A DNA stretch of 64,000 nucleotides from an uncultured Bacilli bacterium (GTDB taxonomy: Bacteria > Bacillota_I > Bacilli_A > RF39 > UBA660): NCBI GenBank assembly GCA_947629815.1, contig CANRFG010000003.1, positions 7,148-71,147 on the forward strand. The letters are read 5' to 3'. A program made the translations under genes and the position numbers. A model generated the notes under the pieces. That model saw only the letters and a program-made list of their open reading frames with translations, was not told the origin of the DNA and did no database searches. Below, in pieces: positions 6,232 to 51,001 of this stretch; within the stretch, counting starts at the first letter, position 1; every line of letters starts with the position of its first letter.

Positions 6232-6585
6232 ATGTTATTAGGTAGGAGATTAAAAGAAGCTAGAAAAAATAAAGGTTATACGCAAAGTGATTTAGCGAGT
6301 GAACTAGGTGTATCTAAGGTTACAATATGTGGATATGAAAGAGGAACAAGAGTACCATCACTTGGTATATTTTTACAATTACTAGACATACTTCAAGTTG
6401 AACCTAATTTTTTATTAGGACGAGATACTTTAATAAGAGAAGGAAATACTGAATATTGTATAAAAGTCGCAAAAGAAGATATAAAGATATTAAAGGAAAT
6501 CAGAAATAATGCCACAGTTTATAGTAAATTTTTAGATAATCCTAAAGGTATTATAAATTTTATAGAACGAAAATTAAATAAATGA
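6232..6585 (+). CDS. XRE-family HTH transcriptional regulator (CI-like, 117 aa)
   Basis: Reads LKEARKNKGYTQSDLASELGVSKVTICGYERG, followed by a C-terminal extension. Confidence 0.7.
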   Translation: MLLGRRLKEARKNKGYTQSDLASELGVSKVTICGYERGTRVPSLGIFLQLLDILQVEPNFLLGRDTLIREGNTEYCIKVAKEDIKILKEIRNNATVYSKFLDNPKGIINFIERKLNK

Positions 6586-33677: not shown

Positions 33678-35411
33678 GTAGAAATGAATAATTTCTATTC
33701 AGTTCTTTTTTTGCTTTGGAAAAGGAAATTTTTCGAAGTTTAAATTGTTTGGTGTATCCCAATAATTACCTTTTAATTTATTGCCATCTAAAGTAGAAAA
33801 ATATTTTCTTATGTTGGCACCTAAGCACATAAGCATAATCTCACAAGAAACTTTATTTAAACCTCGTCTTCTTATTCTATCATAATTCATATTATTTTTT
33901 ATTTGTCCAAATGCACCTTCTACTTGGATGCTTCTGTTTATTCTTATTTCTATTCCTCTTGGACTTTGTAAATTTTTTCTAGCTTCTTCTTTTAATAATT
34001 CATATTCTGGTACTAGTTCATATAATCTATAATCGTAGCTTTTATTTTTTAAGTTTTTCTTACAGACATAAGAATAATTACAATTGTTACAACCAACAAA
34101 TTTATAAAGTTTACTATTTTTATATCTTTGATGTCTAATACCATCAAATGATATTTCTTCTCCGATACAAGTATTTAAACACATAACTCCATCATTAAAA
34201 GTATAAAATAATTGGGGCCTTTTTCCATCAGCTTCACCACTCCATGTAGAATGTTTAACGTAATTTTTTATATTGTGATTTTTCATATATTGATAATTTT
34301 CATACATTCCATATCCTGAATCTGCACATTCATTTTTAGGATATTCTTCATAATATTTATAATATAGGTCATTCATTGGGATAAAAGTATAGAAATCATC
34401 TCGATTTTGAAATACTCCATACATTGTTATTAACCCACTTGATACCATTACTTGTATATTATATCCTGCATGAAAATCATGACTGCTTTTTGAATAATAA
34501 TCTTCCTTTAATACCATCGCAGTGGCATCTTTATCAGTTTTGTAATAAGAATTCCTATTTTCACCACATATTGTTTCTTTTTCTTCGTATTCAAGTAACT
34601 TGATTAAATATTGATAAGCTAATTTATAATTTCTTTGTTCTTTAGTTAATCGTTTACCTTTACCCGTGGGAATAGAATTAATATCTATATTTTCTCTTAC
34701 AACATACTCTTTTATTAGCTCATTTAACTCAAATGATTTTATTTTATTTTTTATTTCAATTCCCATTTTAAGTAATAGTTCTTTAATCTTAATATCTAAT
34801 TTTTTATGGTAAGTAGTTGGCTTCCATACAAATTTATATTTATTCGCATTTGCTTCTATTTTTGTTCCATCATTATATTGAATATCTATATTAACATTAA
34901 GATCTTCTATAATTGCTTTTGTAATCATAGTAAATATTTCATATTGATAAGGGACTATATATTTATTAATGCAATCCTTTATTGAACTGTCACTTGGTTG
35001 TTGTTGTTCCATTAAATAAATAACTCTTAAATCAAATTGACATAGATTTTCTATTTCTCGTAAACTACCTTTAAATTTTGAAAAACAATAAATAATAGTT
35101 GCAATTAAATTAAATGGATTGTATCCTTTTCTTCCAACGTCACTTTGAACGTTTTTTATTATCAATCCTATTCCTGAGTTATTCAAAATTTCAAGGAATT
35201 TATCAATTTTATCAAATTCCTCACAGCATTTCACTGAGGGGACTATGAAAATTGGTCTTTTTGTGTTAAAATATCCCATGTGATACATCTTCTTTCGTCA
35301 ATTAGATTGTATCACGAATTGGTCTTGAAGTCTTATGATTTCAGGACTTTTTATTTTTTGGAATAAATTAAAAAAGAACTGAATAGAAATTATTCATTTC
35401 TACTCAGCCCC
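33670..35411 (-). mobile_element. IS1182-family insertion sequence, copy 1 (1742 bp)
   Basis: Perfect roughly 36-bp terminal inverted repeats: GGGGCTGAGTAGAAATGAATAATTTCTATTCAGTTC at the left and its reverse complement at the right. No clear target-site duplication. The flanks ttaaaaa|IS|tttttaa look palindromic. Confidence 0.8.
33699..35288 (-). CDS. IS1182-family transposase (DUF772 N-terminal domain plus DDE domain)
   Basis: 529 aa. The block GRKGYNPFNLIATIIYCFSKFKGSLREIENLCQFDLRVIYL fits the DUF772 pattern. Identical to the ORF at 39048..40637. Confidence 0.75.
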   Translation of the reverse strand: MYHMGYFNTKRPIFIVPSVKCCEEFDKIDKFLEILNNSGIGLIIKNVQSDVGRKGYNPFNLIATIIYCFSKFKGSLREIENLCQFDLRVIYLMEQQQPSDSSIKDCINKYIVPYQYEIFTMITKAIIEDLNVNIDIQYNDGTKIEANANKYKFVWKPTTYHKKLDIKIKELLLKMGIEIKNKIKSFELNELIKEYVVRENIDINSIPTGKGKRLTKEQRNYKLAYQYLIKLLEYEEKETICGENRNSYYKTDKDATAMVLKEDYYSKSSHDFHAGYNIQVMVSSGLITMYGVFQNRDDFYTFIPMNDLYYKYYEEYPKNECADSGYGMYENYQYMKNHNIKNYVKHSTWSGEADGKRPQLFYTFNDGVMCLNTCIGEEISFDGIRHQRYKNSKLYKFVGCNNCNYSYVCKKNLKNKSYDYRLYELVPEYELLKEEARKNLQSPRGIEIRINRSIQVEGAFGQIKNNMNYDRIRRRGLNKVSCEIMLMCLGANIRKYFSTLDGNKLKGNYWDTPNNLNFEKFPFPKQKKN

Positions 35412-35470
35412 TTTTTAAGTATCAGTTGATTTTAAATTTGAGTGGTGTATAATATTTTTGGTGGTATTAA

Positions 35471-36559: not shown

Positions 36560-36646
36560 TAAGTTTGAATCATGATTTTAAAAGTAGTTATTGTATTTTT
36601 TTTAAAATATGATATACTATAGTAGTAATTTAATATTACTACTTAT

Positions 36647-36689
36647 GGACTGTTAGCTCAGTTGGTAGAGCAACTGACTCTTAATCAGT
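36647..36689 (+). other. 5' half of a second tRNA-Lys gene (acceptor, D-arm and anticodon stem-loop), truncated after the anticodon stem; attL-side core ACTGACTCTTAATCAGT at 36673-36689
   Basis: GGACTGTTAGCTCAGTTGGTAGAGCAACTGACTCTTAATCAGT is followed by non-tRNA sequence. Its matching 3' half lies at 47219-47251. Confidence 0.65.
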
Positions 36690-36716
36690 TGCTCGTGCTA
36701 AAAGGCACAAAAATAT

Positions 36717-36792
36717 GGACCGTTAGCTCAGTTGGTAGAGCAATCGACTCTTAATCGATGGGTCTAGGGTTCGAATCCCTAACGGTCCACCA
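36717..36792 (+). tRNA. tRNA-Lys (anticodon CTT), intact
   Basis: Acceptor GGACCGT/ACGGTCC. Anticodon stem ATCGA/TCGAT with loop CTCTTAA. T-arm TAGGG TTCGAAT CCCTA. CCA present. Confidence 0.85.
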
Positions 36793-36941
36793 TATTTGAT
36801 AAGTAAAATTCCTAGCAATTATAAGGGTTTGTTAGGAATTTTTATTTTTTGATTTTAAAAATTTTATGAAAAAAATGACATCAAAATTTGATGTAAAAAT
36901 GAAAAAAATTTTGTATAAATACAAATTTTAAAAAAATATAA

Positions 36942-37004
36942 ACTTATCACAAAGTATCATAATTTATCATAAGACGGCACCAATTACGGCACCCACACGG
37001 CACC
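36942..37004. repeat. three 10-bp iteron-like repeats (NTATCAYAA) followed by three CGGCACC direct repeats near the left end of the element
   Basis: cttatcacaa, agtatcataa, tttatcataa, then acggcacc..acggcaccc..acggcacc. Matching repeats occur at 45408-45447 (iterons, four units) and 47043-47062 (CGGCACC, two units). Confidence 0.6.
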
Positions 37005-37086
37005 TTTTAAAAAAATCTCTATCTAAAATTGAATATTTGATAAAACATTTAAAGGAGCAAATAAAAAAATTAGATAGGAGCAAAAA

Positions 37087-37347
37087 ATGAACGAACAAGA
37101 TTTTGAAAATTTAAAAGATTTAAGGTTTACTATTACCGAAGAAATGAAAGACACAATAATTGAAACTGCATTTACTAACCAAATACTTGACGAGTGCGAA
37201 CTATCGAAAAAAGATAGAAAACTTTTGAAAAAGCACGCCGAAAAATTAAAACGAAAATTTGCGTTAGATTTACAAGCACACAACCAAGTACAAGTACAAA
37301 TTATTCGTGCCTATATAAGTGGTAAAAAAGAGATAGACCAAAAATAA
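37087..37347 (+). CDS. hypothetical protein (element cargo)
   Basis: 86-aa ORF with a GGAG RBS. Charged and helical. Confidence 0.4.
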   Translation: MNEQDFENLKDLRFTITEEMKDTIIETAFTNQILDECELSKKDRKLLKKHAEKLKRKFALDLQAHNQVQVQIIRAYISGKKEIDQK

Positions 37348-37362
37348 AGTTTATCTCTTTTC

Positions 37363-38013
37363 TTATTCTAAATTTATACTATCAATAAATTCAATACTTT
37401 TCATTTCTTCATAAATTTGTTCTTGTGTCTTTCTTTTTTCTTCCATTATTCTTGCTTTCAATTCGCTACTACTTAATTGAGAGTGTTCGTTTGTATAATT
37501 AAATTTTGAATTTTCAAATAATTTAAAAATTTTAGTTGGTACTCGTTTATCGTGGGTGGCAATAAAAGGGTTTAATATAAAATTGTTGCCTCTACCTGTA
37601 ATCGCGGGTACTTTTTTTATAATTTCTTCATTTTCAAGTTGTTTAATTCCGTCCCTAAAAGATGTATCACTACATAAAGTTAAGGCTTGTATTTCCTTAC
37701 TATTCATAAACCCGTCAAAATGTTTATTTTTCATTTTTATAATAAAGCCACTATATGTACCCCAACCAAGAGAGGAAAGCATAACCATTAAAATATCGTA
37801 TGAACTTTTTGTTAAATTACATTGTGCTATCATACGAAAAGGCAAGTCCATTGACTTATTAAATTTTTTACCTTTGTTTATTTCTTTTGTCTTGCTTAAA
37901 TATTCTATTGTTTTAGCACTAATTATGTAAAACCTATCGTTTCTATTTAGATAAGTTGTTTCTCCTGTTTCCAAGTTGGCTAGAACTCTTGTATAATCTT
38001 CATAGTTTATCAC
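37363..38013 (-). CDS. RepL-like Firmicute plasmid replication protein
   Basis: C-terminal block KVPAITGRGNNFILNPFIATHDKR resembles RepL (..RKTGVLMLNPELLMRGDD..). GTG start with AGGGGGT RBS. Palindromic sites ACGAAAATTCGT x2 lie just upstream (38036-38079). Confidence 0.55.
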   Translation of the reverse strand: MINYEDYTRVLANLETGETTYLNRNDRFYIISAKTIEYLSKTKEINKGKKFNKSMDLPFRMIAQCNLTKSSYDILMVMLSSLGWGTYSGFIIKMKNKHFDGFMNSKEIQALTLCSDTSFRDGIKQLENEEIIKKVPAITGRGNNFILNPFIATHDKRVPTKIFKLFENSKFNYTNEHSQLSSSELKARIMEEKRKTQEQIYEEMKSIEFIDSINLE

Positions 38014-38160
38014 ATATCTTAACCCCCTATAAGAGCGAAAATTCGTGGTCGAAAAAGTAGTTTACCCACGAAAATTCGTACCCATTAAAAACTCAATTTT
38101 TCTTTTAAATAAAGGCTAAAAGAGATGTTTATTGCATTTCTTCTTTTATTGTTCTAGTAT

Positions 38161-38517
38161 TTAATCAATTTTACAATAATCTCTATTAGCATTGTAGCAA
38201 CAAGTAGGACAATTTCTTTCAAAGCCTTGATACTCTAAAGCCCTATAAAACTTTTCCCCAAATATACCTTGCCCTCGTGCAAGTTTTTGTATTTCTTCTT
38301 GTATAACTTGACGGACAATTTTTTCGATGTATAAGTCTTGCTCGTCCTTTTGTAGTGGGTAGGAAAAAGTCTTTTTTCTTTCTTCCTTTTCCTTACTTTC
38401 TTTTTCCCATTGTTCCATAAGTTTTAAGATGTCATATTCTATCGTTTGTTCGAAAACCTTTTCAATATCTTGCAAGTCGAAGATGTCCTCAAAACCTATC
38501 TTGTCAGTTTGTTTCAT
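38161..38517 (-). CDS. hypothetical protein with C-terminal Cys cluster (CPTCCYNANRDYC)
   Basis: 118-aa ORF with an acidic N-terminus. No motif recognised. Confidence 0.4.
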   Translation of the reverse strand: MKQTDKIGFEDIFDLQDIEKVFEQTIEYDILKLMEQWEKESKEKEERKKTFSYPLQKDEQDLYIEKIVRQVIQEEIQKLARGQGIFGEKFYRALEYQGFERNCPTCCYNANRDYCKID

Positions 38518-38585
38518 ATATAACCCTCCATATAGATTTTTTCTTTCATTGTCATTTTATAAAGTGTTGCTAGTCGTTGTTAAGA

Positions 38586-38750
38586 TTAGACTTTTTTATT
38601 TTCGATGTATTCTTTTAAAGTGCTTTCACTAACTAGATAACGATTAGCAACTCTAAAAGCCTCGAGTTTATGTTCTCGTATTAACTTTTGAATAGTCTTA
38701 ACATTAACCCCAAGAATACAACTTATTTCCTTTGTTGTGTAAAATTTCAT
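38586..38750 (-). CDS. excisionase/MerR-superfamily HTH DNA-binding protein (54 aa; not in the ORF track)
   Basis: Reverse-strand translation MKFYTTKEISCILGVNVKTIQKLIREHKLEAFRVANRYLVSESTLKEYIENKKV. The TKEISxxLGVSxxTIxxLIRExKL pattern is typical of Xis-family HTH proteins. Confidence 0.5.
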   Translation of the reverse strand: MKFYTTKEISCILGVNVKTIQKLIREHKLEAFRVANRYLVSESTLKEYIENKKV

Positions 38751-39018
38751 ATACACACACCTCCTTTAATCTAAAGAGTAGTGATTTAACTACCCCTTAC
38801 TTAAAAGAGAATAAATGCAACTAAAAATACACAAAACATACCTTACTTATCTAGTGCAAACAAAAGAGGCATTTATAAGCACATAAAAAGCCCCTTATAT
38901 TCGCATATAAAAGGCTTATAGCAAAGATTTACAAGCAAGCAATAAAAAGATACATCTAAAACCAAACATCTTGTATCGTGCAAGTATTCCAGCTTGAAAT
39001 CTATTGACAATATAAAAA

Positions 39019-40760
39019 GGGGCTGAGTAGAAATGAATAATTTCTATTCAGTTCTTTTTTTGCTTTGGAAAAGGAAATTTTTCGAAGTTTAAATTGTTTG
39101 GTGTATCCCAATAATTACCTTTTAATTTATTGCCATCTAAAGTAGAAAAATATTTTCTTATGTTGGCACCTAAGCACATAAGCATAATCTCACAAGAAAC
39201 TTTATTTAAACCTCGTCTTCTTATTCTATCATAATTCATATTATTTTTTATTTGTCCAAATGCACCTTCTACTTGGATGCTTCTGTTTATTCTTATTTCT
39301 ATTCCTCTTGGACTTTGTAAATTTTTTCTAGCTTCTTCTTTTAATAATTCATATTCTGGTACTAGTTCATATAATCTATAATCGTAGCTTTTATTTTTTA
39401 AGTTTTTCTTACAGACATAAGAATAATTACAATTGTTACAACCAACAAATTTATAAAGTTTACTATTTTTATATCTTTGATGTCTAATACCATCAAATGA
39501 TATTTCTTCTCCGATACAAGTATTTAAACACATAACTCCATCATTAAAAGTATAAAATAATTGGGGCCTTTTTCCATCAGCTTCACCACTCCATGTAGAA
39601 TGTTTAACGTAATTTTTTATATTGTGATTTTTCATATATTGATAATTTTCATACATTCCATATCCTGAATCTGCACATTCATTTTTAGGATATTCTTCAT
39701 AATATTTATAATATAGGTCATTCATTGGGATAAAAGTATAGAAATCATCTCGATTTTGAAATACTCCATACATTGTTATTAACCCACTTGATACCATTAC
39801 TTGTATATTATATCCTGCATGAAAATCATGACTGCTTTTTGAATAATAATCTTCCTTTAATACCATCGCAGTGGCATCTTTATCAGTTTTGTAATAAGAA
39901 TTCCTATTTTCACCACATATTGTTTCTTTTTCTTCGTATTCAAGTAACTTGATTAAATATTGATAAGCTAATTTATAATTTCTTTGTTCTTTAGTTAATC
40001 GTTTACCTTTACCCGTGGGAATAGAATTAATATCTATATTTTCTCTTACAACATACTCTTTTATTAGCTCATTTAACTCAAATGATTTTATTTTATTTTT
40101 TATTTCAATTCCCATTTTAAGTAATAGTTCTTTAATCTTAATATCTAATTTTTTATGGTAAGTAGTTGGCTTCCATACAAATTTATATTTATTCGCATTT
40201 GCTTCTATTTTTGTTCCATCATTATATTGAATATCTATATTAACATTAAGATCTTCTATAATTGCTTTTGTAATCATAGTAAATATTTCATATTGATAAG
40301 GGACTATATATTTATTAATGCAATCCTTTATTGAACTGTCACTTGGTTGTTGTTGTTCCATTAAATAAATAACTCTTAAATCAAATTGACATAGATTTTC
40401 TATTTCTCGTAAACTACCTTTAAATTTTGAAAAACAATAAATAATAGTTGCAATTAAATTAAATGGATTGTATCCTTTTCTTCCAACGTCACTTTGAACG
40501 TTTTTTATTATCAATCCTATTCCTGAGTTATTCAAAATTTCAAGGAATTTATCAATTTTATCAAATTCCTCACAGCATTTCACTGAGGGGACTATGAAAA
40601 TTGGTCTTTTTGTGTTAAAATATCCCATGTGATACATCTTCTTTCGTCAATTAGATTGTATCACGAATTGGTCTTGAAGTCTTATGATTTCAGGACTTTT
40701 TATTTTTTGGAATAAATTAAAAAAGAACTGAATAGAAATTATTCATTTCTACTCAGCCCC
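39019..40760 (-). mobile_element. IS1182-family insertion sequence, copy 2 (identical to copy 1, same orientation), nested inside the integrative element
   Basis: Same inverted repeats as copy 1 and an identical 529-aa transposase ORF at 39048..40637. Confidence 0.8.
39048..40637 (-). CDS. IS1182-family transposase (copy 2)
   Basis: Identical translation to the ORF at 33699..35288. Confidence 0.75.
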   Translation of the reverse strand: MYHMGYFNTKRPIFIVPSVKCCEEFDKIDKFLEILNNSGIGLIIKNVQSDVGRKGYNPFNLIATIIYCFSKFKGSLREIENLCQFDLRVIYLMEQQQPSDSSIKDCINKYIVPYQYEIFTMITKAIIEDLNVNIDIQYNDGTKIEANANKYKFVWKPTTYHKKLDIKIKELLLKMGIEIKNKIKSFELNELIKEYVVRENIDINSIPTGKGKRLTKEQRNYKLAYQYLIKLLEYEEKETICGENRNSYYKTDKDATAMVLKEDYYSKSSHDFHAGYNIQVMVSSGLITMYGVFQNRDDFYTFIPMNDLYYKYYEEYPKNECADSGYGMYENYQYMKNHNIKNYVKHSTWSGEADGKRPQLFYTFNDGVMCLNTCIGEEISFDGIRHQRYKNSKLYKFVGCNNCNYSYVCKKNLKNKSYDYRLYELVPEYELLKEEARKNLQSPRGIEIRINRSIQVEGAFGQIKNNMNYDRIRRRGLNKVSCEIMLMCLGANIRKYFSTLDGNKLKGNYWDTPNNLNFEKFPFPKQKKN

Positions 40761-40854
40761 TTAATTATTGCTATATATCGCTCGTACGAGGGGGTATAGT
40801 TTAGTAATTTGTACTTGACTTTTCAAAAAATCGGTCGCCACCTCGTATATTGAT

Positions 40855-41397
40855 TTAGTCAGTTCTATAATATTGTTTAAGGCTTCCGTCAGTATCGTCC
40901 CTCTCATATAGTTCGTCATAATCATTATTGTATTGAAAATGCTCGTGAAAATCAGTATCTTCTTCCATATACAAGAAAATATCATTATCCTCATTTGCAT
41001 AAACATCTATTTTTCCTTTGTAAGAGTATTTAAAATCGTCATTACCTTGATAAATAAAACCACTTGTTTTTTTAAATGTTTTGTTTTCAGAAAAAGTTAT
41101 AATATCATAACTTATGCCACCATTTGTTTTTGATGTTTTTCTATATTCCCAAGTCCCAACAATTTTATCAAGTAGTTTTTCCTCTTGTTTATGCTTTATA
41201 CTTTCCGTAAACAAAATAAATGATACTATGCCAACTATAAATACCGAAATAACACTAATAATCGGCACAATAATTTTAAAAGCCTTTGACTTTTCTTTTT
41301 TTGCTTTTTCTTTTTTATAAACAAAACCACAATGAGGACATCGCTTTGCACTATCACTTATTTCTTTGCCACACTCTTTACATTTAATTAGAGCCAT
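40855..41397 (-). CDS. zinc-ribbon domain membrane protein, paralog 3 (with C-terminal soluble domain)
   Basis: N-terminus MALIKCKECGKEISDSAKRCPHCG (CxxC...CxxC), one TM helix, then a roughly 110-aa extracytoplasmic domain. Confidence 0.55.
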   Translation of the reverse strand: MALIKCKECGKEISDSAKRCPHCGFVYKKEKAKKEKSKAFKIIVPIISVISVFIVGIVSFILFTESIKHKQEEKLLDKIVGTWEYRKTSKTNGGISYDIITFSENKTFKKTSGFIYQGNDDFKYSYKGKIDVYANEDNDIFLYMEEDTDFHEHFQYNNDYDELYERDDTDGSLKQYYRTD

Positions 41398-41839
41398 TTT
41401 TTTCGCTCCTTAAAACCATTAAATATAATAAAATATAAATTGTATAATTATTGATAAAATCCATCAATACTTTTAATATTCCATAGTATTTAAGAGTAAA
41501 ACCAAGTTGTAAAAAAATATATGTAATCATATTTATTGTCAAAACAATTCCTACTACGATTTTTAAAATTGGCAATTTCATTTTAGCCATAAAGAAAATT
41601 AACCATAAAATTGCAATGTTAGTAATATTATAAATTGTTTGTATTGTTAAAGGGAAAATACTAGGTATCATACAAAGGGTATAAAGGCTCAATAAAATTA
41701 TTATTCCTATATCTATATTGCTAATTTTTCCTTTTTTCTTTTCAATTCTTTTTGTTTTTATTTCAATACCACAATGAGGGCAAGTTTTTAATGTATCACT
41801 CATTTCTTTGCCACACTCGGTACACTTAATTAAAGCCAT
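41384..41839 (-). CDS. zinc-ribbon domain membrane protein, paralog 2 (4 TM)
   Basis: N-terminus MALIKCTECGKEMSDTLKTCPHCG, followed by a polytopic membrane region. Overlaps paralog 3 by 14 nt. Confidence 0.55.
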   Translation of the reverse strand: MALIKCTECGKEMSDTLKTCPHCGIEIKTKRIEKKKGKISNIDIGIIILLSLYTLCMIPSIFPLTIQTIYNITNIAILWLIFFMAKMKLPILKIVVGIVLTINMITYIFLQLGFTLKYYGILKVLMDFINNYTIYILLYLMVLRSEKNGSN

Positions 41840-41854
41840 TTTTTGCTCCTTTCT

Positions 41855-41941
41855 TTATTTCTTCTTATTTAGAATAATAGCAACTATAATACCAACAACT
41901 ATTGCTACTACTACACAAATTAAAATTGGTAAAAACATCAT
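41855..41941 (-). CDS. 28-aa hydrophobic peptide ORF with strong RBS (MMFLPILICVVVAIVVGIIVAIILNKKK)
   Basis: AAGGAG RBS sits 7 nt upstream of the ATG on the minus strand. A single TM helix with a KKK tail. Lies between zinc-ribbon paralogs 1 and 2. Confidence 0.3.
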   Translation of the reverse strand: MMFLPILICVVVAIVVGIIVAIILNKKK

Positions 41942-41956
41942 ATAAAATCACTCTCC

Positions 41957-42361
41957 TTAATATGTTGAATATATAATTATCCACAAAAAGCCTATGAATA
42001 AAAAGACACTACTTATTATGACGGAAATAAGCCCCATTGTTTTAGCACTATTTTGTTTTCCTTTATTTGAATTTAAAACAATGATACCTAAAACTAAACT
42101 AACTATTGATGTGATACCAAAGAACGAACATATAAGAGAGGCTAAAGCCATATTGTAATTTTCGCCTCTTTCGTCAGTTGTCTTATTGTTGCTATTAGTT
42201 TGAAAAGCATACCCACAATTAGGACACATTGTTGCTTTACGACTTAATTGTTTATCACACTCAGGGCAAAACATTATATTGTTTTCAACACCACAATTAG
42301 GGCATATTTTTGCGTGGTCGCTCATTTCTTTTCCACACTCATTGCACTTAATCATTGCCAT
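41957..42361 (-). CDS. double zinc-ribbon membrane protein, paralog 1 (DUF4190-like C-terminus)
   Basis: N-terminus MAMIKCNECGKEMSDHAKICPNCG, then a second ribbon CPECD...CPNCG, then two TM helices. Confidence 0.55.
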   Translation of the reverse strand: MAMIKCNECGKEMSDHAKICPNCGVENNIMFCPECDKQLSRKATMCPNCGYAFQTNSNNKTTDERGENYNMALASLICSFFGITSIVSLVLGIIVLNSNKGKQNSAKTMGLISVIISSVFLFIGFLWIIIYSTY

Positions 42362-42472
42362 ACATAAAACCTCCTTTCTTCCACATCTCTATTATAACAC
42401 ATTTTATCTACGAACGATAGATAAAGAAAGCCGATTTTTCTTGAGATAATTATATAGAGAGGTGGTGAGGCT

Positions 42473-42724
42473 ATGACGGACAACAAAAAAGACGAAAACT
42501 ATATCTATTATATTATCGGTCAAAATTTGAAAAGACTACGAAAAGAAAAAGGCTTTACCCAAGAAAAACTTGCCGAGGCGAGCAATTATGCTTTAAGTTT
42601 TATTGGCAATTTAGAAAGTGATAAAGTGTTTCAAACGGCTTCCGTTGGTAGCCTTTACCATATAGCCAAGATTTTAAAAATCGATATAAGAGAGTTATTC
42701 GTCCCAATAGACGAAAATAAGTAG
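42473..42724 (+). CDS. XRE-family HTH regulator divergent from the zinc-ribbon operon
   Basis: Reads IGQNLKRLRKEKGFTQEKLAEASNY. Confidence 0.65.
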   Translation: MTDNKKDENYIYYIIGQNLKRLRKEKGFTQEKLAEASNYALSFIGNLESDKVFQTASVGSLYHIAKILKIDIRELFVPIDENK

Positions 42725-42849
42725 ATGTGTAGTACATCTTTTTTTATTGCCAAAAAGGGCTTTTATTTGCCTACTATTTAAGTGATAAAGTTAGAGGGGT
42801 ATATTTTATAATACTTTTATTTAAAGCAACAAAAAAGGCTTAAAACACA

Positions 42850-43593
42850 TTATTTAGTGCTAGCCTTTAAGTATTGCTCGATGTCAAACTTATCAATGTT
42901 TTTGACATCTATTTTTTTATAGTTATTTATTAGAAAATCTTTGACTATTCCAACAAACTCATTTTTTGCATTTTCATTATCATTAAATAAAAAGTTCCAG
43001 TCGTTTGTGTATTCTTCGTCATATAGGTATTTGAATATAGAAAAGCCAATACTTTCTTTCGTTTCGTGATAGATATATTTTTTTACAAGTTGCATTGTGT
43101 TATTTGTCATAAGACTTGTTTCTTTTTCTTTGCTTTCAGTATCATAGATTATTATTTTATCTTTGCTTAATTCTTCGAGCATAGGTACAATATATTTGTT
43201 TATATAATCATTTACTTTTGTATTATAAGTAAATTGTTTTATAACACTTTCTCTTATTCTATTTGCTATATCTTTTTTAAGTTTAACATCTCCCTTATCT
43301 AAAAAGCCAATTTCTTCGTCCTTTAACATATTAGGGGCTTTGTTTTCTTCGTTTACTTGTGCGAATAATATTGTCATATCTACTGCCGAAGATGTCATAT
43401 TTTGCGAGTAGATTATTTCTTCTTTTTTATTTGTTGTTCCTATTAAATCATAAATATTTATTTTAGGCATTATATAAGTATTAACAAAATCATTGGCTTT
43501 ATTTATAAGTGTTTGTTCTTCACTTGTGTTTTTTCGATTCTTTGCTCTTGTTTGATTTTCTTCGTTTAATTTTTTAATAACATTTATTGCCAT
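42850..43593 (-). CDS. hypothetical protein (element cargo; second gene of a two-gene operon)
   Basis: 247 aa. No recognisable motif. Its start abuts the stop of the upstream 372-aa ORF. Confidence 0.45.
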   Translation of the reverse strand: MAINVIKKLNEENQTRAKNRKNTSEEQTLINKANDFVNTYIMPKINIYDLIGTTNKKEEIIYSQNMTSSAVDMTILFAQVNEENKAPNMLKDEEIGFLDKGDVKLKKDIANRIRESVIKQFTYNTKVNDYINKYIVPMLEELSKDKIIIYDTESKEKETSLMTNNTMQLVKKYIYHETKESIGFSIFKYLYDEEYTNDWNFLFNDNENAKNEFVGIVKDFLINNYKKIDVKNIDKFDIEQYLKASTK

Positions 43594-43594
43594 A

Positions 43595-44713
43595 CTAACT
43601 CAACCTTTCGTATAGATTTTTATTTCTTTCAATAATTGCTTGTACTTTATCAAAAGCCTTTTTAAAATTGGCTTGCTTTTGTTCTTCCGTTTCAGTTTGT
43701 AAAACTACCAATTCATAAGCCTCTTTTAAATCAATAACTATTTTATTGATAAGCATATTACTTGCTATTGCTTTTATGTTTCCGTCAATTATATCTTTCA
43801 TTGTAGTTATAAAGTAGTAATAATCAAACTTGTTTATGTAGTCGGTCATTTCAATATTGTATGCTATTTCTTTAGGTAGTTGTTCCGTTAGTTTTTGACT
43901 AACTAAAATAATTAAATCTAAAAACTTTTCGCTATTCTTTTTGAATAAGTCATTATCTTTAATATCAAGATGTAATAAAGAAAGATAGGCTTTGTAGTAT
44001 TCTTCAGGACTAGATTTTTCGCTTAAATCAAACTCAATAGGCTCTTTATCATATAAAGTTTTTACGATGCCATTATTTGCATAGGCTACCAAGTCGTAAA
44101 TAAAGCCTATATATTGCATTTCTTCCTTTGTTAAGTCAATTCCATAGGTATTAACAAAATCACTCTTATATTGGCTTTTAAAAGCCTTATAATCGGTATA
44201 TAAATTATTAAATTTACTTATAAATATTTTGTAGTTGCTATCTTTGTTTTTTTCGTATTCAATACCACCTTTTACAACACTATCAAAACCGATATTTTCT
44301 AGTTGTTGCATTTCTTCTTCAATTTCAATTTTAAAAGTATCTATATATTTATCGTTATAAGATAATTTTTCATACCAAGCAATAAACTTGTTATATAAAA
44401 TTCTCGTGTTGCTATCGATTAAAGCCTTTAATGTCCTTACACTATATTTGTTTCGGTCGTCGTCCTCGCTTTTATAAATTATCTTTTCAAGTATTATTTG
44501 TATTTCGTCTTGTTTTTCCTTTTTGCTTTTATTACTATCGGCAAAAAGTATGTTATTTATTATTATAAGAGTTTTATATACATCTAGCATTATATCGTAT
44601 TGCTCTTTGTATTCTTTTCTAAAATCAGTTATGCCGAGTTCTCGTTCTATTGTATTTATATACTTGCTATTGCGAAAAATATCGTCATTTAAAGTATTAT
44701 GTCTTTTTCCCAT
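43595..44713 (-). CDS. hypothetical protein (element cargo; first gene of a two-gene operon)
   Basis: 372 aa, all-helical composition. No recognisable motif. Confidence 0.45.
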   Translation of the reverse strand: MGKRHNTLNDDIFRNSKYINTIERELGITDFRKEYKEQYDIMLDVYKTLIIINNILFADSNKSKKEKQDEIQIILEKIIYKSEDDDRNKYSVRTLKALIDSNTRILYNKFIAWYEKLSYNDKYIDTFKIEIEEEMQQLENIGFDSVVKGGIEYEKNKDSNYKIFISKFNNLYTDYKAFKSQYKSDFVNTYGIDLTKEEMQYIGFIYDLVAYANNGIVKTLYDKEPIEFDLSEKSSPEEYYKAYLSLLHLDIKDNDLFKKNSEKFLDLIILVSQKLTEQLPKEIAYNIEMTDYINKFDYYYFITTMKDIIDGNIKAIASNMLINKIVIDLKEAYELVVLQTETEEQKQANFKKAFDKVQAIIERNKNLYERLS

Positions 44714-44850
44714 AAAAAGCCCTCCATACTTAAATTATACCACGAAAAAAGGCTATCTCATATAAGATAACCTTTGTTTTAGTTTAGATTAAGTTTAATT
44801 TAGTTTGTTTATAGTTTAAATTAGTTTTTCAATAGTTTAATTTAGTCTAA

Positions 44851-45111
44851 TTAACTCAAAATAGAGTTTAATTCAACAAAGTTGTCATATTCTTTTTTTA
44901 TAGCCTTGTATAAACTAGCAACTCTATTATCAATACTATTTTTAGAGCCATTTTTTTGTTGTTGATTTGCTACATATTTAGCAAATTTATTCAAAGTTGT
45001 TTTTGATACCTCTCTTTCAGTATATTTGTTAAGCATAACCTCAACCATAGCACCTTTAATATCACTTAAATCTAAAACCTCTTTAACATTTTTATCTAAC
45101 ATCTTAATCAC
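44851..45111 (-). CDS. hypothetical small protein
   Basis: 86-aa ORF in the element. Confidence 0.35.
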   Translation of the reverse strand: MIKMLDKNVKEVLDLSDIKGAMVEVMLNKYTEREVSKTTLNKFAKYVANQQQKNGSKNSIDNRVASLYKAIKKEYDNFVELNSILS

Positions 45112-45407
45112 TTTCCTTTCTTTGTGGGGCTACCACTTTTTCGTTAGATTTTCACAAACTTTTCAACCGGTTTCTTCGTTTGTGATTACATCTTACCAAG
45201 AAAATACCTAAAAAAAAGTATCAAGAAACAAGTAAAAGTGTACCATTTCAAAAATACTAATTGCCTTTATTTACGGGCTTTTCTTAATTTTTAAGACCGA
45301 TTTTTCGAATAAATAATCAAAAAATAAATAAAAATTTTTTGATATTTTTTTATTCTTCTAGCCCCGTATTTTTTCTTATTTATATATATAGGCTGTTGGA
45401 CGAAAAA

Positions 45408-45447
45408 AGTATCATAAACTATCACAAAGTATCACAAACTATCATAA
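45408..45447. repeat. four tandem 10-bp iteron-like repeats (agtatcataa actatcacaa agtatcacaa actatcataa) next to an AT-rich stretch
   Basis: Read directly. Same unit as the repeats at 36943-36972. An AT-rich tract lies upstream at 45312-45350. Confidence 0.6.
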
Positions 45448-45639
45448 AATTTTACAATAAATTTTGTATTTTCAACTCGATAAATCGGTTAAGTATTTTT
45501 ATCTAGCCCTTATAATATGGGCTTTTTTAATGTTTTAAATTAGTACAAAGTTATTATTTTTTAGTACGAGATTAAAGGCTTTCTTAATTGCTAAACTCTA
45601 ATTGTTCGAACGGAAAATCAATGAATTGGAGGTTTAACA

Positions 45640-45837
45640 ATGACAAAAGAAATTTGTAATTTAAAAGATTTATCAAACTATTTAAAAATATCTATTTCGG
45701 AAATTAGAAAGTTAGTACGAGAAAGAAAAATACCACATTTTAGAATCGGCAATCGTATTATGTTTGATTTAAAAAGTATAAATACTTGGCTTGAAAATTT
45801 ACAAGAAAAAGAAAGCAAAACATCTCTATTTTACTAG
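45640..45837 (+). CDS. xis: excisionase / AlpA-family HTH protein
   Basis: 65 aa with the HTH LSNYLKISISEIRKLVRERKIPHFRIGNRIMF. Lies immediately upstream of the integrase gene. Confidence 0.6.
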   Translation: MTKEICNLKDLSNYLKISISEIRKLVRERKIPHFRIGNRIMFDLKSINTWLENLQEKESKTSLFY

Positions 45838-45909
45838 GAAAAATAAGAAAAATATGATATAATTATAAGTAGATAGAGATTGTTTTATCAAATGTTAGGA
45901 GGAAAGAAA

Positions 45910-47025
45910 ATGATAAAACAACTATCAAAAAATAAATATAAAATAATAGCAGAAATTGGCTACACTATGGACGGCAAAAGAAAAAGAAAAACGGAAATTT
46001 TTGAGGGTACTAAAAAGCAAGCCGAAACAAGAGAATTTGAAATTAAGCAACAATATTCTAAAAAAGGCTTTATTACTGATAGTAAAAATTTAACCTTTGA
46101 AGATTATGGAAAAATTTTCATTAAGCATTATTGCGAAGGAAATATTGGTGCTAAAACTATGGACGGCTATCTATCAATGCTAGAAAAAATCAATTCGTAT
46201 CTAGGAAATTGGCAATTAAAAAGTATCGAAACATTTACTTTAACACAACTATATAAGAAATTAAAAAAAGGTACTAGAAAAGATGTTGTTACCAATAACA
46301 CTTTATTGCATTATTACAATCTTATCAATTTAATGTTTACACAAGCAGTTAAGTGGAATTTTATTGATAGCAACCCAAATTCAAATATTCCTAGACCAAA
46401 GAAAGAAAAACATCTAGCCGAGTGTTACGATATCGACCAAATACATACATTATTAAATGGCTTAACAAACGAGTGCTTAAAATATCAAGCCTTAATTATT
46501 CTAGCCATTGACTCGGGAGCAAGGAGGAGCGAGATATTGGCTCTTACTTGGAAAGATATTGATTTTGATACCAAAGTATTAACTATCAATAAATCACTAG
46601 ATGTTATTAGAGGCGAGTTTATAGAAAAAGCAACAAAAAATGATACATCAACAAGAAAAATGGTATTAACTGATACCACTATAAATGTATTAAAAGCCTA
46701 TCGTGAAGAATTAAAAACATCTAATACTTGGAAAGAAACAAACAAATTATTTCTAGCAAAAGACGGAAAACCTATGTACCCAACAACTTGTGGCAAAATT
46801 TTTCAAAAAGTAGCCGTTAAAAATGGACTACCTAAAATTAACTTTCACTCATTAAGACATAGTTCGGCAAGTTTACAAATTGCTTTAGGTGTTCACACAA
46901 AATTGATACAAGAAAGAATGGGGCATTCTTCTATGGCAGTTACAACAAGTATTTACTCACATATTTTTCAAGCCAATAGGACGGAGGTTGCTAACAAGTT
47001 AAATGGTGCTTTATCACTCAATTAG
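45910..47025 (+). CDS. int: site-specific tyrosine recombinase (phage-type integrase)
   Basis: C-terminal catalytic region ARRSEILAL...HSLRHSSASL...HSSMAVTTSIYSH (R..H..R/H..Y). AGGAGG RBS at 45897 precedes the ATG at 45910. Confidence 0.9.
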   Translation: MIKQLSKNKYKIIAEIGYTMDGKRKRKTEIFEGTKKQAETREFEIKQQYSKKGFITDSKNLTFEDYGKIFIKHYCEGNIGAKTMDGYLSMLEKINSYLGNWQLKSIETFTLTQLYKKLKKGTRKDVVTNNTLLHYYNLINLMFTQAVKWNFIDSNPNSNIPRPKKEKHLAECYDIDQIHTLLNGLTNECLKYQALIILAIDSGARRSEILALTWKDIDFDTKVLTINKSLDVIRGEFIEKATKNDTSTRKMVLTDTTINVLKAYREELKTSNTWKETNKLFLAKDGKPMYPTTCGKIFQKVAVKNGLPKINFHSLRHSSASLQIALGVHTKLIQERMGHSSMAVTTSIYSHIFQANRTEVANKLNGALSLN

Positions 47026-47201
47026 ACAACATTTTTAAAATTTCGGCACCTTTTCGGCACCCATTATCAAAAATAGCCTATTGTATAACCAATAAAAAAA
47101 TGCTATAATATATATGACAAATCCCAAAAACCCCTATAAAATAAGGGAATAATTGGTAGTATGTCTTATCATTAAATTGGTGTTGTCGTTGTATATAGCC
47201 C

Positions 47202-47251
47202 ACTGACTCTTAATCAGTGGGTCTAGGGTTCGAATCCCTAACAGTCCACCA
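47202..47251 (+). other. attR: 17-bp core plus the 3' half of the split tRNA-Lys (variable loop, T-arm, acceptor ACAGTCC, CCA)
   Basis: cactgactcttaatcagtgggtctagggttcgaatccctaacagtccacca. The 54-bp region is an imperfect direct repeat (2 mismatches) of 36746-36798. Confidence 0.65.
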
Positions 47252-47700
47252 TATTTGATACTAAACTTGGAAAATTTCTGGGTATTAAGTAAAACGACTT
47301 GTCAAAAAGTCGTTTTTGTGATATGATGAATATGTCAAGGGAACTTGAATAAAATAAAAAAGGAATACCTAATTTTGATGAGTTAGGTACTATCCAAATC
47401 TTAGATTAGTACCGACTTATATAGTTGGTACCATTTTTATTAGTATGATTAAAATCACAATAATAAGGAGTATTATGATAGTGCAAAGATATTTCTCTGA
47501 TTTTCTCATAACTTCACCTCCTTTCACTTTAAAAAGTAAAGGAGAATAGTACCTAAAATAATTAAGTATTCCTCTGACATTATATCAAACATTTGTTCTT
47601 GATACAAGAGATTTTATATTAAATCAGAATAATAAAAACAACTTGTCAAAAAGTCGTTTTTATTATTAATATGCCAAGTAAATTTGCATTAAATAAAAAT
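47252..47700 (+). other. conserved noncoding module (copy B) plus a third copy of its promoter/mini-ORF segment
   Basis: Promoter TTGTCA at 47299, 17-bp spacer, TATGAT at 47322. Mini-ORF atgtcaagggaacttgaataa. Long inverted repeat 47377-47406 against 47548-47572. The motif cacctcctttc (identical to the 16S 3' end). A third promoter/mini-ORF copy at 47640-47700. Confidence 0.5.
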
Positions 47701-47996: not shown

Positions 47997-48629
47997 ATGA
48001 TTATGAACGAAACATTAAAAGATTTGCAAACACCAGAAGGAAAAGCAAGATTGGAAAAATATGTTGAGGAATATATCGCTAAAATAAAAGTTAGAAATGA
48101 AAAAATTAAGAGTATGATGTCTAATGCTGAGTATCTTGAATGGCTTAATGAATTTACTAAAGATAAAGATAGATTTTCTGATGATGATTGGATATATTTT
48201 CAAAAAAAAATAAGTGATTCTGATAGAGAAAATGTTAAAAAATTATGCTTGTTTTATGAAGGAATTAAAGAATATGCCACAGAAAATTATATTTATCCTA
48301 CACCTTGTGATTTTGGAGAATATTATAAGATTAAATTAAATGATTTTGGCTTTAAGATTGGAGTTTTATTTAGACAGAAGACTGTATTCTTTTTTGATAA
48401 AACATTAATAGAAAATGAAAAAGAATTAATTGATTTTAAAGATGTTATGATTGGAAAAAAGCAAGATAATGTAGATAAAATTAATGCTACATTAAATTCT
48501 CTATCAAGTGAGGTTATGACAGCTTATGAAAGTGGAGTTCCAATTGAAGCAATAGTTGATACATTAAAAAATATAATTAAAGAAATATCTAAAAAAAAGG
48601 ATAAACCTAAAATATTAGTAATAAAATAA
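47997..48629 (+). CDS. hypothetical protein
   Basis: 210-aa ORF with GGAGG RBS. Confidence 0.4.
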   Translation: MIMNETLKDLQTPEGKARLEKYVEEYIAKIKVRNEKIKSMMSNAEYLEWLNEFTKDKDRFSDDDWIYFQKKISDSDRENVKKLCLFYEGIKEYATENYIYPTPCDFGEYYKIKLNDFGFKIGVLFRQKTVFFFDKTLIENEKELIDFKDVMIGKKQDNVDKINATLNSLSSEVMTAYESGVPIEAIVDTLKNIIKEISKKKDKPKILVIK

Positions 48630-48970: not shown

Positions 48971-51001
48971 ATGAATAATGATTTAAAGATAATAGAGAAA
49001 AAATATGGAGAAAAGATGAGCCATTTATGTAGAGAGTATTTTCCAATATTATTAGAACAAGAAGGTTTACTTTCTAGATTAATGGAGCAAAACTTTGAAC
49101 CAAATCATGAATTATATAATGATATTATTGAAAATAATCTTGAATTAACTTTTAAGAAATATATTTATAGTTTAGTAGATGTAGAAAAAATGATAGATTT
49201 AGAAATAGAAAAAACACCAGAAGAATTACTAAATGAAGCTGGATATATACTTTATGAATGTAAAAGTGAAAAAGATATACAAAAATTTAAAAAATATTAT
49301 GCTGAACGCGAAGAATTATGTACATTTAATGGAGGAAGACTTAATAGGTGTAGAGTATTCTTTGCAGTAAAAAAAGATGTTGATAATATTAAAAGAGAAA
49401 ATTTTGATAAACCACAAAGACAAGATTTGTATGGAACATCTGTAATAAGTATACAATTTACTAAAGATGGAACAAATACATTATCTATAAAAAATAGGTA
49501 TAACCATAAAGTAAATAATCCAGATGCAACATTTTCAAATAATTTGGACAATATAATATTAGGCTTGACAAAAAGTTTTGAAAAATTTTATGGAATAAAG
49601 CAAAAACATCAAAATTCTATGTTAGAAATACCAGGGTATGTGAGAGCGAATGATGGAAAATACTATAAATATAATTATGAGATTCATAATGTATATTATT
49701 GTACAGATAATGTTATAATTGATAATTTTAAAGTTAAAAGATTTCCTAAGGAACAATATATATTAATAGATTATTTTTTAGTTGATTTGAAAAGTAAAAA
49801 AGTATTTTTATATGACGAAGAAATAAAAGATTCATTTCCAAGTTCTTTTGGGAAAATAGATAAAATAGAAGTATTAAAAACAGCAAATGGTAGAAAAATA
49901 CTTATGACACAAACAAATTCAAAAGATAAAATAGAAATAGAGATAGACAAAGAAAATAAAATATTAAAATTATATAATGATAATTTAAAAGAAATAGGAG
50001 ATGCTTTTCTATATTGGAACGAAAGTCTAACAAGTTTTGAAGCGCCAAATTTAAAAAAAGTAGAATATAGTTTTCTATATAATAATGAAAGTCTAACAAG
50101 TCTCGTAATGCCAAATTTAAAAAAAGTAGGGGACTATTTTCTATGTAGGAACAAAAGTCTAGCAAGTTTCGAAGCACCAAATCTAATAATAGTAGGAAAT
50201 AGATTTCTATTTTTTAATAAAAGTCTAACAAGTCTCGTAATGTCGAATTTAAAAAAAGTAGGAGACGATTTTCTATTTAATAATAGAAGTTTAACAAGTT
50301 TCATAGCACCAAATTTAAAAGAAGTAGGGAATGATTTTCTATATGGTAATAAAATTCTAACAAGTTTCGAAGCACCAAATTTGGCAGTAGTGGGACATAA
50401 TTTTCAATATTATAACGAAAGTTTAATAAGTTTTGAAGCACCAAATTTAATAAAAGTAGGACATAATTTTCTATTTTATAACAATGGACTAACAAAATTC
50501 ATAGCACCCAATTTAAAAGAAGTAGGAGACAATTTTTTACTTTATAACTACTTTTTAACAAGTTTTATAGCGCCAAATTTAACAAAATTAGGATATAGTT
50601 TTCTATATAATAACAAAAGTCTAACAAGTTTCAAAGCACCAAATCTGACAATAGTAGGACATAGTTTTCTATTTTTTAACGAAAGTCTAACAAGTTTCGA
50701 AGCCCCAAATTTAACAAAAGTAGGAGACCATTTTCTATGTCATAACGAAAGCCTAACAAGTTTCATAGCCCCAAATTTAATAGAAACAGGAGATGATTTT
50801 CTATTTTATAACAAAAGCTTAACAAGGTTCGAAGCACCAAATTTAACAACAATAGGAGATAATTTTCTATATTATAACAAGAGTCTAAAAAGTTTAGAAA
50901 CGCCAAATTTAAAAGAAGTAGGAATAGATTTTTTATGTAGTAATGAAAACAACTTAAATGAAGCAGAAAATGGAAAAAGCAAAAAACTCATTAATAATTA
51001 A
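48971..51001 (+). CDS. BspA-like leucine-rich-repeat protein (about 20 x 22-aa repeats FLY.N.SLTSF.APNL..VG..) with an unknown roughly 330-aa N-terminal domain
   Basis: Repeats read in the translation. The DNA shows a diverged 66-bp periodicity. Confidence 0.6.
   Translation: MNNDLKIIEKKYGEKMSHLCREYFPILLEQEGLLSRLMEQNFEPNHELYNDIIENNLELTFKKYIYSLVDVEKMIDLEIEKTPEELLNEAGYILYECKSEKDIQKFKKYYAEREELCTFNGGRLNRCRVFFAVKKDVDNIKRENFDKPQRQDLYGTSVISIQFTKDGTNTLSIKNRYNHKVNNPDATFSNNLDNIILGLTKSFEKFYGIKQKHQNSMLEIPGYVRANDGKYYKYNYEIHNVYYCTDNVIIDNFKVKRFPKEQYILIDYFLVDLKSKKVFLYDEEIKDSFPSSFGKIDKIEVLKTANGRKILMTQTNSKDKIEIEIDKENKILKLYNDNLKEIGDAFLYWNESLTSFEAPNLKKVEYSFLYNNESLTSLVMPNLKKVGDYFLCRNKSLASFEAPNLIIVGNRFLFFNKSLTSLVMSNLKKVGDDFLFNNRSLTSFIAPNLKEVGNDFLYGNKILTSFEAPNLAVVGHNFQYYNESLISFEAPNLIKVGHNFLFYNNGLTKFIAPNLKEVGDNFLLYNYFLTSFIAPNLTKLGYSFLYNNKSLTSFKAPNLTIVGHSFLFFNESLTSFEAPNLTKVGDHFLCHNESLTSFIAPNLIETGDDFLFYNKSLTRFEAPNLTTIGDNFLYYNKSLKSLETPNLKEVGIDFLCSNENNLNEAENGKSKKLINN

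Follow-up and report, generated by a model that had tools for sequence, protein, structure and literature searches.

In a 64,000-nt stretch of DNA from an uncultured Bacilli bacterium (GenBank assembly GCA_947629815.1, contig CANRFG010000003.1, positions 7,148 to 71,147), hereafter the window, whose positions serve as coordinates throughout, an element of 10,529 bp (36673-47201; ~8.8 kb before an insertion sequence (IS) entered it) separates the two halves of a tRNA-Lys(CTT) gene. It is very probably a lambda-type tyrosine-integrase element that carries a complete replacement tRNA inside its own attachment site, attP. The host 5' half, GGACTGTTAGCTCAGTTGGTAGAGCA followed by ACTGACTCTTAATCAGT, reaches from the start of the tRNA through the anticodon stem-loop; 3' of position 36689 the sequence leaves the tRNA pattern and continues with TGCTCGTGCT. 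At the other end, 47202-47251 consists of the same 17-mer, ACTGACTCTTAATCAGT, followed by the tRNA 3' half, GGGTCTAGGGTTCGAATCCCTAACAGTCCACCA. Joined, the halves form a 76-nt tRNA-Lys(ctt) that is recognized by ARAGORN and has an acceptor stem paired at 7/7 positions, GGACTGT pairing with ACAGTCC at 47241-47247. The 17-mer is present in exactly two copies in the 64 kb, even if up to two mismatches are allowed, compared to 0.03 matches expected by chance, and none of 100 shuffled sequences contains it twice; in the alignment of attL and attR that had been proposed as a check, the cores are identical at 17/17 positions. Since the halves join and the 17-mer is unique to the junctions, the view put forward in an earlier note on this DNA, that a split tRNA-Lys(CTT) gene with a duplicated anticodon stem-loop marks attL and attR of a tyrosine-integrase element, is borne out. 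The inverted repeats that flank the 7-nt anticodon loop at both junctions (Table 1) suggest that the loop is the likely overlap region of the recombination, with a putative integrase half-site on either side.

Two tRNAs are detected in the window by ARAGORN, one of which is the intact tRNA-Lys(ctt) at 36717-36792, 27 bp inside attL; ARAGORN and the sequence agree with the coordinates that had been noted earlier for this gene and for the two halves. The inner gene starts 70 bases 3' of the start of the host 5' half and, over its 76 positions, shows 6 differences to the reconstructed host tRNA. Scored with the Rfam tRNA model, it reaches 73.8 bits and the attR region 23.7 bits (below threshold), while the 5' half together with the spacer gives a partial match of 30.8 bits over model positions 7-64, in which the spacer hairpin is aligned as a T-arm-like hairpin; no tRNA is called by ARAGORN for this 5' half plus spacer. 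RNA folding of 36647-36716 yields a 10-bp hairpin (z = -5.0), the 5' half and the spacer forming two hairpins.

The same arrangement recurs in other genomes. The integrase was used to scan one genome per species, which yielded five close relatives with 62-87% identity, all from metagenome-assembled genomes (MAGs) of uncultured Bacilli/Clostridia; the loci of relatives are denoted by L-numbers. Both ends of the element are present in L005, L007 and L008 (integrase identity 84%, 68% and 62%, respectively), each with different flanks; the host of L005 is the complete MAG OZ006981.1. At the left end, these loci have a promoter-like TGTTATAAT box, a tRNA-Lys 5' half, a TC(G/A)GTTG junction, a 25-27-bp spacer, a complete tRNA-Lys(ctt) and a terminator hairpin with a T-run; at the right end, int is followed by a conserved P arm and by the core with the 3' half. 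The attR is the same in L004 and L006 (integrase 87%). The TGTTATAAT box occupies the equivalent position 5' of the 5' halves in L005, L008 and L007, and also in the more distant L112 (see below). The identity between attL and attR is 11-14 bp in the relatives, the core common to the whole family is 11 bp (GACTCTTAATC), and the attL signature of the family is GAGCANNNGACTCTTAATCRGTTG. None of the more distant integrase loci, L009-L071, has the layout of a 5' half followed by a tRNA with the same anticodon.

The two host halves covary. Their acceptor strands are GGACTGT/ACAGTCC in the window and L008, GGGGCGT/ACGCCCC in L005 and GTGACAT/ATGTCGC in L007, each paired at 7/7 positions, and the joined host halves are called tRNA-Lys by ARAGORN in 4/4 complete loci; combining the inner 5' half with the attR 3' half gives only 5-6/7 acceptor pairs in all four. 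The six target tRNA-Lys(CTT) genes have five different acceptor stems between them, the target tRNAs of the window and of L008 being identical. The cargo tRNA of L008 (4497-4572) equals the reconstructed target of L005 (1392-1433 joined to 11331-11378) at 76/76 positions, and the cargo tRNA of L007 is 5 nt from the tRNA of its own host and 15-19 nt from the other cargo tRNAs. These identities and distances hint at an exchange between cargo and host tRNA genes.

The integrase translation has intact catalytic motifs (ARRSE, HSLRH, GHSS and IYSH), and int as well as both xis-like open reading frames (ORFs) are intact. The heptamer CGGCACC occurs in only five copies in the 64 kb, all in a single orientation and all at the two element ends, a number not reached in any of 100 shuffles; such repeats are what a lambda-like integrase would be expected to have as arm-type sites, and their positions show that attP contains the inner tRNA, with the core on one side of it and the P' arm sites on the other. 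The P-arm repeats are kept in L004-L006 and L008. In L007, the P arm contains GTGCCACC twice and the P' arm has single related copies, GTGCCAC and GTGTCGCC. The junctions point to recombination by this integrase between a predicted attP, ...GTTGTATATAGCCC-ACTGACTCTTAATCAGT-TGCTCGTGCTAAAAGG..., and a predicted attB, ...GGTAGAGCA-ACTGACTCTTAATCAGT-GGGTCTAGGG..., the latter flanked by 36600-36646 and 47252-47300. The P-arm hairpin CCCCTATAAAATAAGGG scores as a minus-strand terminator, which would protect int from antisense read-through; by eye, its stem differs in L008 (CCTTG...CAAGG), a change that RNAalifold does not count as covariation.

In the circular form, 45394-47201 and 36690-37081 are contiguous and make up a unit of ~2.2 kb in the order iterons, xis, int, P arm, core, spacer, tRNA, terminator, iterons and P' arm. 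The remainder of the element (37082-45393) is 94-99% identical at the DNA level to L125 and L126, with 98-99% over large stretches; in these two loci, a 526-aa serine recombinase takes the place of xis-int and the tRNA is absent. The xis-int-attP-tRNA unit is a swappable ~2.2-kb cassette on a cryptic backbone that carries other integration modules elsewhere; as the serine-recombinase backbones are without a tRNA, the tRNA belongs to the integration module. That the element carries its own replacement tRNA, one of two options left by the earlier note, is supported by the layout in three other species, the covarying halves and these tRNA-free backbones. A large serine recombinase of ~526 aa in place of xis, int and tRNA is seen on the same backbone in L113, L116-L119, L122 and L125-L127. 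Among the serine-recombinase copies, one identical marker protein is found in at least four chromosomal contexts; the sequences suggest that this version may be actively mobile.

A second isotype is treated in the same way. In L112, L115 and L128, the same backbone is combined with an integrase that is 43% identical to that of the window (measured on L115), and the interrupted gene is that of a tRNA(CAT), with GTTCATACCCG as the core. The complete tRNA(CAT) of the element is situated 40 bp inside attL, adjoining int and convergent with it, and the arm-type repeats of this type are ATGTGGCCAT. Both junctions are present in L128, where the joined halves give a tRNA-Met(cat). L115 is a 10.2-kb metagenome contig that corresponds to exactly one tRNA(CAT)-type element, with the core GTTCATACCCG at both ends (1-13 and 10186-10196); the assembly breaks at the repeated core, and a mix of circular and integrated forms is possible. 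A canonical relative also exists: L120, whose integrase is 45% identical, sits at tRNA-Asn(GTT), where the repeat is of the classical long kind, covering the gene from its anticodon loop to its 3' end, and a stranded 5' half is absent. The direct repeat in L120 spans ~200 bp (6390-6560 and 16646-16815) and continues past the tRNA 3' half and the terminator into iterons and arm-type sites; this repeat resembles what would remain of a second element in tandem, beside attR.

Two features of the junctions concern tRNA-like folds. The spacer hairpins resemble a T arm in both types, GTGCT-AAAA-GGCAC in the window (36690-36716) and GGGG-TTAC-TCCC in the CAT type (L112 5221-5260), and may be decayed remnants of an ancestral tRNA 3' half borne by attP. 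The attR region (window 47179-47251; L005 11301-11378) can likewise adopt a tRNA-like fold, in which GCCC lengthens the anticodon stem by way of the host variable loop and the P-arm TGGTG pairs with the CACCA 3' end; in L005, a 78-nt 'tRNA-Lys' is called here by ARAGORN. A functional chimeric tRNA at attR was considered and rejected, because the fold has no D arm, its 5' strand remains unpaired with the variable host acceptors and its 'acceptor' pairs with the CCA end. The invariant GCCC at attR may be an integrase half-site instead.

Integration probably took place in the following manner: in a chromosomal tRNA-Lys(CTT) gene, the anticodon stem-loop was recombined by the integrase with the short attP core, which split the gene, and the element would compensate for the loss with its complete tRNA-Lys(CTT), positioned 27 bp from the crossover in the orientation of the target. 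After integration, the inner tRNA lies 70 bp downstream of the old tRNA start and is most likely transcribed from the host tRNA promoter, which is the simplest source of its transcription as the 27-bp spacer contains no promoter-like box. Normal 5' processing would then release the inner tRNA, and the stranded 5' half would be inert. In the excised circle, the inner tRNA would be found behind the promoter-like TTGTAT-17-TATAAT of the P arm. The anatomy, its recurrence, the covarying halves and the modularity are seen in the sequences, and we infer that the host promoter drives the inner tRNA, that the cargo tRNA is needed and that the element can still excise today. Carrying a whole tRNA may also widen the host range: a borrowed 3' half would mispair in many hosts, whereas a whole tRNA would work wherever the anticodon loop is conserved. 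More tentatively, and with somewhat less than even confidence, the cassette could be regarded as self-sufficient and host-independent, needing only the 11-nt anticodon-loop region and entering hosts with differing tRNA bodies, with horizontal replacement of chromosomal tRNA genes as a by-product. Replacement could proceed by recombination of the 3' halves of the inner tRNA and attR, which form a 56-bp repeat, with deletion of the element and fixation of the foreign tRNA behind a 5'-half scar. The identity of the L008 cargo with the L005 target and the tracking of host lineages by cargo tRNAs would be footprints of such traffic.

Several points weigh against this explanation. The circle and the empty site, which the earlier note had suggested looking for, were found neither in viral and metagenome contigs nor in contigs with the flanking genes: the attP signature GCCCNNTGACTCTTAATCRGTTG has 0 matches in viral contigs and one unrelated, high-GC chance match in metagenome contigs, all contigs with the flanking genes (exact-protein look-up, same strain) are occupied, and for the upstream flanking gene, the nearest homologues from other species (65% identity) are not syntenic. 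The host promoter is missed by a two-hexamer promoter scan, the IS insertion could have disabled the element, and expression of the inner tRNA and its dependence on the promoter are predictions. An unlikely but serious alternative accepts the anatomy as described and regards this copy as a fixed, immobile remnant that the IS or the loss of a helper has disabled and that is inherited with the chromosome. The position of the IS within the backbone and the missing circle junction and empty site would fit, as would the lack of any transfer- or packaging-like gene; relaxase/oriT (origin of transfer), type IV secretion system and FtsK-like translocase had no Pfam/NCBIfam match in the ORFs of the element, although very divergent versions are possible. 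Against a remnant, int and both xis-like ORFs are intact, the two cores have remained identical, the IS displaced an intergenic hairpin and no gene, and the 98-99% identity to elements with a different recombinase in other metagenomes indicates recent movement.

Considerably less probable is a phage satellite akin to phage-inducible chromosomal islands (PICIs), or a defective prophage, that would use the tRNA for strictly phage-type tRNA-dependent lysogeny. The int-xis-XRE layout, the size of 7-10 kb and the known precedent in phages agree with this view, but homologues of capsid, terminase, small-terminase, primase, lysis and capsid-redirection proteins are absent according to Pfam, PHROGs and NCBIfam, as had been noted earlier for structural phage genes; unlike in PICIs, which combine int and a repressor with a primase/replicase and with genes for packaging or capsid redirection (terS, cpm/ppi-like), only int, the xis-like genes and XRE are recognizable. 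The 372-aa marker protein of the backbone has no relatives in IMG/VR, and the integrases there are only ~30% identical and stem from unrelated prophages, so that the earlier suggestion of a satellite or PICI-like island finds no support. DNA similarity to known plasmids and phages is confined to tRNA-sized matches.

Hardly tenable is canonical integration, in which 36717-36792 would be a hybrid attL made of a host 5' half and an element-supplied 3' half, the 56-bp repeat the att pair and the upstream 5' half an unrelated relic or pseudogene: an imperfect repeat of 56 nt with 95% identity does exist (36746-36801 and 47205-47260), running 9 nt past the tRNA end, and L120 does use this mode at tRNA-Asn, but the ancestor required, made of the inner 5' half and the attR 3' half, would have had the 5-6/7 acceptor pairs given above for all four loci and, in the window, anticodon stems with mismatches. 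In every one of these loci, the 7/7 acceptor partner of the attR 3' half is the upstream 5' half, which keeps a constant distance of 25-27 bp to the inner tRNA in four species and adjoins a conserved element-type junction; the serine-recombinase backbones have no tRNA. The earlier note had offered this repeat, as 54 bp at 36746-36798 and 47214-47266, as an alternative att pair; its second copy was misregistered by 9 nt, and each split half finds its partner in the other rather than in the inner tRNA, which rejects this pair. Had one of two tandem host genes been hit, the observed succession of 5' half, inner tRNA, element and 3' half could not have resulted either.

A split tRNA gene with the replacement inside attP can be compared with several known systems. 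Tyrosine integrases use integration sites in the anticodon loop of tRNA genes (Williams class I), and the element shares with these a crossover in the 7-nt loop with the symmetric anticodon stem on either side. It differs from them in that the canonical attP contains the sequence from the anticodon loop to the 3' end and to restore the gene, whereas the element side of attL here reads TGCTCGTGCTAAAAGGCAC... and holds no 3' half. In Haemophilus phage HP1, attP contains whole tRNA genes within a long block of attP/attB identity that restores the operon; complete tRNA genes within the attP region are common to both, but in the present element the identity spans only 11-17 bp, and the tRNA comes as an additional copy that is not identical.

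The closest parallel is the 'tRNA-dependent lysogeny' described in mycobacteriophages and other actinobacteriophages (Fionnbharth/K4, Cluster L, Gaia; Guerrero-Bustamante & Hatfull, mBio 2024; PMC10865867), in which a short anticodon-loop core of 8-17 bp is used, the tRNA is not rebuilt and an isotype-matched tRNA compensates (PMC10865867). In both cases, a tyrosine integrase with arm-type sites targets an attB at the anticodon loop of a tRNA gene, often tRNA-Lys; the core is short (17 bp here, 11-14 bp in relatives), no tRNA is rebuilt at attL or attR, and a complete tRNA with matching isotype is carried. Close relatives with a canonical long core are likewise known among the actinobacteriophages (PMC10865867), corresponding to L120 here. 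Every feature defining that system that can be read from sequence is found, except that the carrier is not a temperate phage, structural, packaging and lysis families being absent; it is a 7-10-kb element without recognizable phage genes, from MAGs of low-GC Bacilli/Clostridia. The tRNA of Fionnbharth is encoded at another place of the genome, where it overlaps gene 37, and a promoter of its own has been demonstrated (PMC10865867); in contrast, the tRNA of the present family lies inside attP, 25-40 bp from the core, co-oriented with the target and behind the putative host tRNA promoter. The Lj965 prophage of Lactobacillus johnsonii and phage-related sequences of Sinorhizobium meliloti, to which three articles refer (PMC10865867, PMC3714127, PMC11476347), also substitute an inactivated tRNA. 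According to these articles, integration leaves the tRNA unrebuilt and the element brings the cognate tRNA, as here; the carriers in those cases are described as prophages or phage-related islands.

The principle, which the earlier note does not mention, is already known (PMC10865867); the present case differs in that the carrier is a non-phage element with the tRNA inside attP behind the host promoter. tRNA-replacing integration, which was shown experimentally only in 2024, is extended beyond actinobacteriophages to small non-phage elements, and a widespread, unannotated family of elements emerges in uncultured gut Firmicutes with at least two tRNA isotypes. With the spare tRNA in attP the design is tidier, as integration would swap the gene in place behind the host promoter. 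The compact ~2.2-kb cassette suggests how integration vectors for low-GC gut bacteria of poor tractability might be designed, and the family provides a candidate for how tRNA genes are turned over horizontally and how tRNA half-gene fragments originate. At such sites, a 5' half followed by a full tRNA is a signature to be expected in genome annotation.

Table 1. Features of the element and its junctions in window coordinates
Feature	Position	Strand	Evidence or remark
Promoter-like box TGATATACT (extended -10) of the host tRNA-Lys gene	36610..36618	+	Read from sequence; 28 nt upstream of 5' half; putative function
Host tRNA-Lys(CTT) 5' half, ending in the 17-bp attL core (36673-36689)	36647..36689	+	
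attL core region: perfect 9-bp inverted repeat, AGCAACTGA and TCAGTTGCT, around the 7-nt anticodon loop CTCTTAA	36669..36693	.	Read from sequence
27-bp element-side spacer with small hairpin GTGCT AAAA GGCAC	36690..36716	+	
Element-borne complete tRNA-Lys(CTT), acceptor GGACCGT/ACGGTCC, anticodon stem ATCGA/TCGAT	36717..36792	+	ARAGORN, Rfam
Terminator-like hairpin and T-run after inner tRNA	36806..36852	+	RNA fold -15.5 kcal/mol, z = -4.2
10-bp iterons TATCAYAA x3	36945..36972	+	Beside P' arm sites; conserved in L005, L120
Arm-type repeats CGGCACC x3, P' arm of attP	36975..37004	+	290 bp inside attL
86-aa ORF, conserved backbone gene	37087..37347	+	
216-aa ORF, predicted winged-helix DNA-binding protein	37363..38013	-	AlphaFold2 (AF2) predicted local distance difference test (pLDDT) 68
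118-aa ORF	38161..38517	-	
Helix-turn-helix HTH_17 / excisionase-family DNA-binding protein, second copy	38586..38756	-	PF12728 E 7e-13; TIGR01764 E 1e-11
1,750-bp IS, DDE_Tnp_1_6 transposase of 529 aa, ~40-bp terminal inverted repeats, secondary insertion	39013..40762	-	
Three paralogous N-terminal zinc-ribbon, probably membrane, proteins (180, 151, 134 aa)	40855..42361	-	No PADLOC match
XRE-family HTH regulator	42473..42724	+	PF12844/PF01381; phrog_3, phrog_8
Conserved backbone operon, 86 + 372 + 247 aa	42850..45111	-	372-aa protein is family marker
372-aa marker protein	43595..44713	-	
10-bp iterons TATCAYAA x4	45410..45447	+	Upstream of xis-int
Xis-like HTH_17 gene, directly 5' of int	45640..45837	+	PF12728 E 4e-11; TIGR01764; phrog_66
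Tyrosine integrase, 381-aa ORF, likely start ATG 45910	45880..47025	+	PF00589 E 1e-25, SAM-like N-terminal domains, phrog_1 E 4e-67
Arm-type repeats CGGCACC x2, 11 bp apart, P arm	47044..47061	+	Just after int stop
Conserved P-arm features: promoter-like TTGTAT-17-TATAAT preceded by TG, towards core; hairpin CCCCTATAAAATAAGGG	47081..47147	.	Alignment of six elements, scan; putative function
attR core region: perfect 9-bp inverted repeat, GCCCACTGA and TCAGTGGGT, around CTCTTAA; 17-bp core 47202-47218	47198..47222	.	
Host tRNA-Lys(CTT) 3' half: variable loop, T arm, ACAGTCC, ACCA	47219..47251	+	

Among the cargo genes listed in the earlier note, int (PF00589), the two Xis-like HTH genes, the XRE regulator, the zinc-ribbon genes and the DDE transposase were recovered, together with the 10-bp iterons, but the RepL-like replication initiator was not confirmed. 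The 216-aa ORF has no Pfam, PHROG or NCBIfam match, and the core of its AF2 model is a generic winged helix, for which the best Foldseek matches (MarR/BlaI/TubR) are weak, with E >= 3e-3; matches to RepA N-terminal domains (4pql, 4pt7) are also weak, with E about 0.03. The backbone operon for the 86-, 372- and 247-aa proteins has no family match in Pfam, PHROG, NCBIfam or PADLOC. The 372-aa protein has 390 homologues at E <= 1e-5 in gut metagenomes, none of them named and without a Pfam domain, and its AF2 model is confident (pLDDT 87) yet without a meaningful structural neighbour. The element as a whole gives no PADLOC matches. The zinc-ribbon paralogues (MALIKCxECGKE...) number three in the window and five each in L113 (5098-8010) and L115 (4928-7843), with 5' gene ends that are 74-88% identical to each other at the DNA level; the array looks like rapidly diversifying cargo.

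The IS insertion that had been noted earlier is corroborated by an identical second copy and by the uninterrupted site in the IS-free L125. The second copy, at 33664-35413 outside the element, is 100% identical and in direct orientation; a serine-hydrolase gene lies between the two copies, together with attL and the element's left part, and recombination between the copies would remove attL. The inner IS took the place of a 26-bp palindromic hairpin, aatgtgtggtacacaccacacatttt, between two genes, which is intact in L125 (7790-7822), and the insertion may reflect hairpin targeting. Downstream of the integration site of the element, the window encodes a 210-aa ORF without family (47997-48629) and a 676-aa BspA-type leucine-rich-repeat protein (48971-51001, plus strand), of which L102 has a variant of 498 aa.

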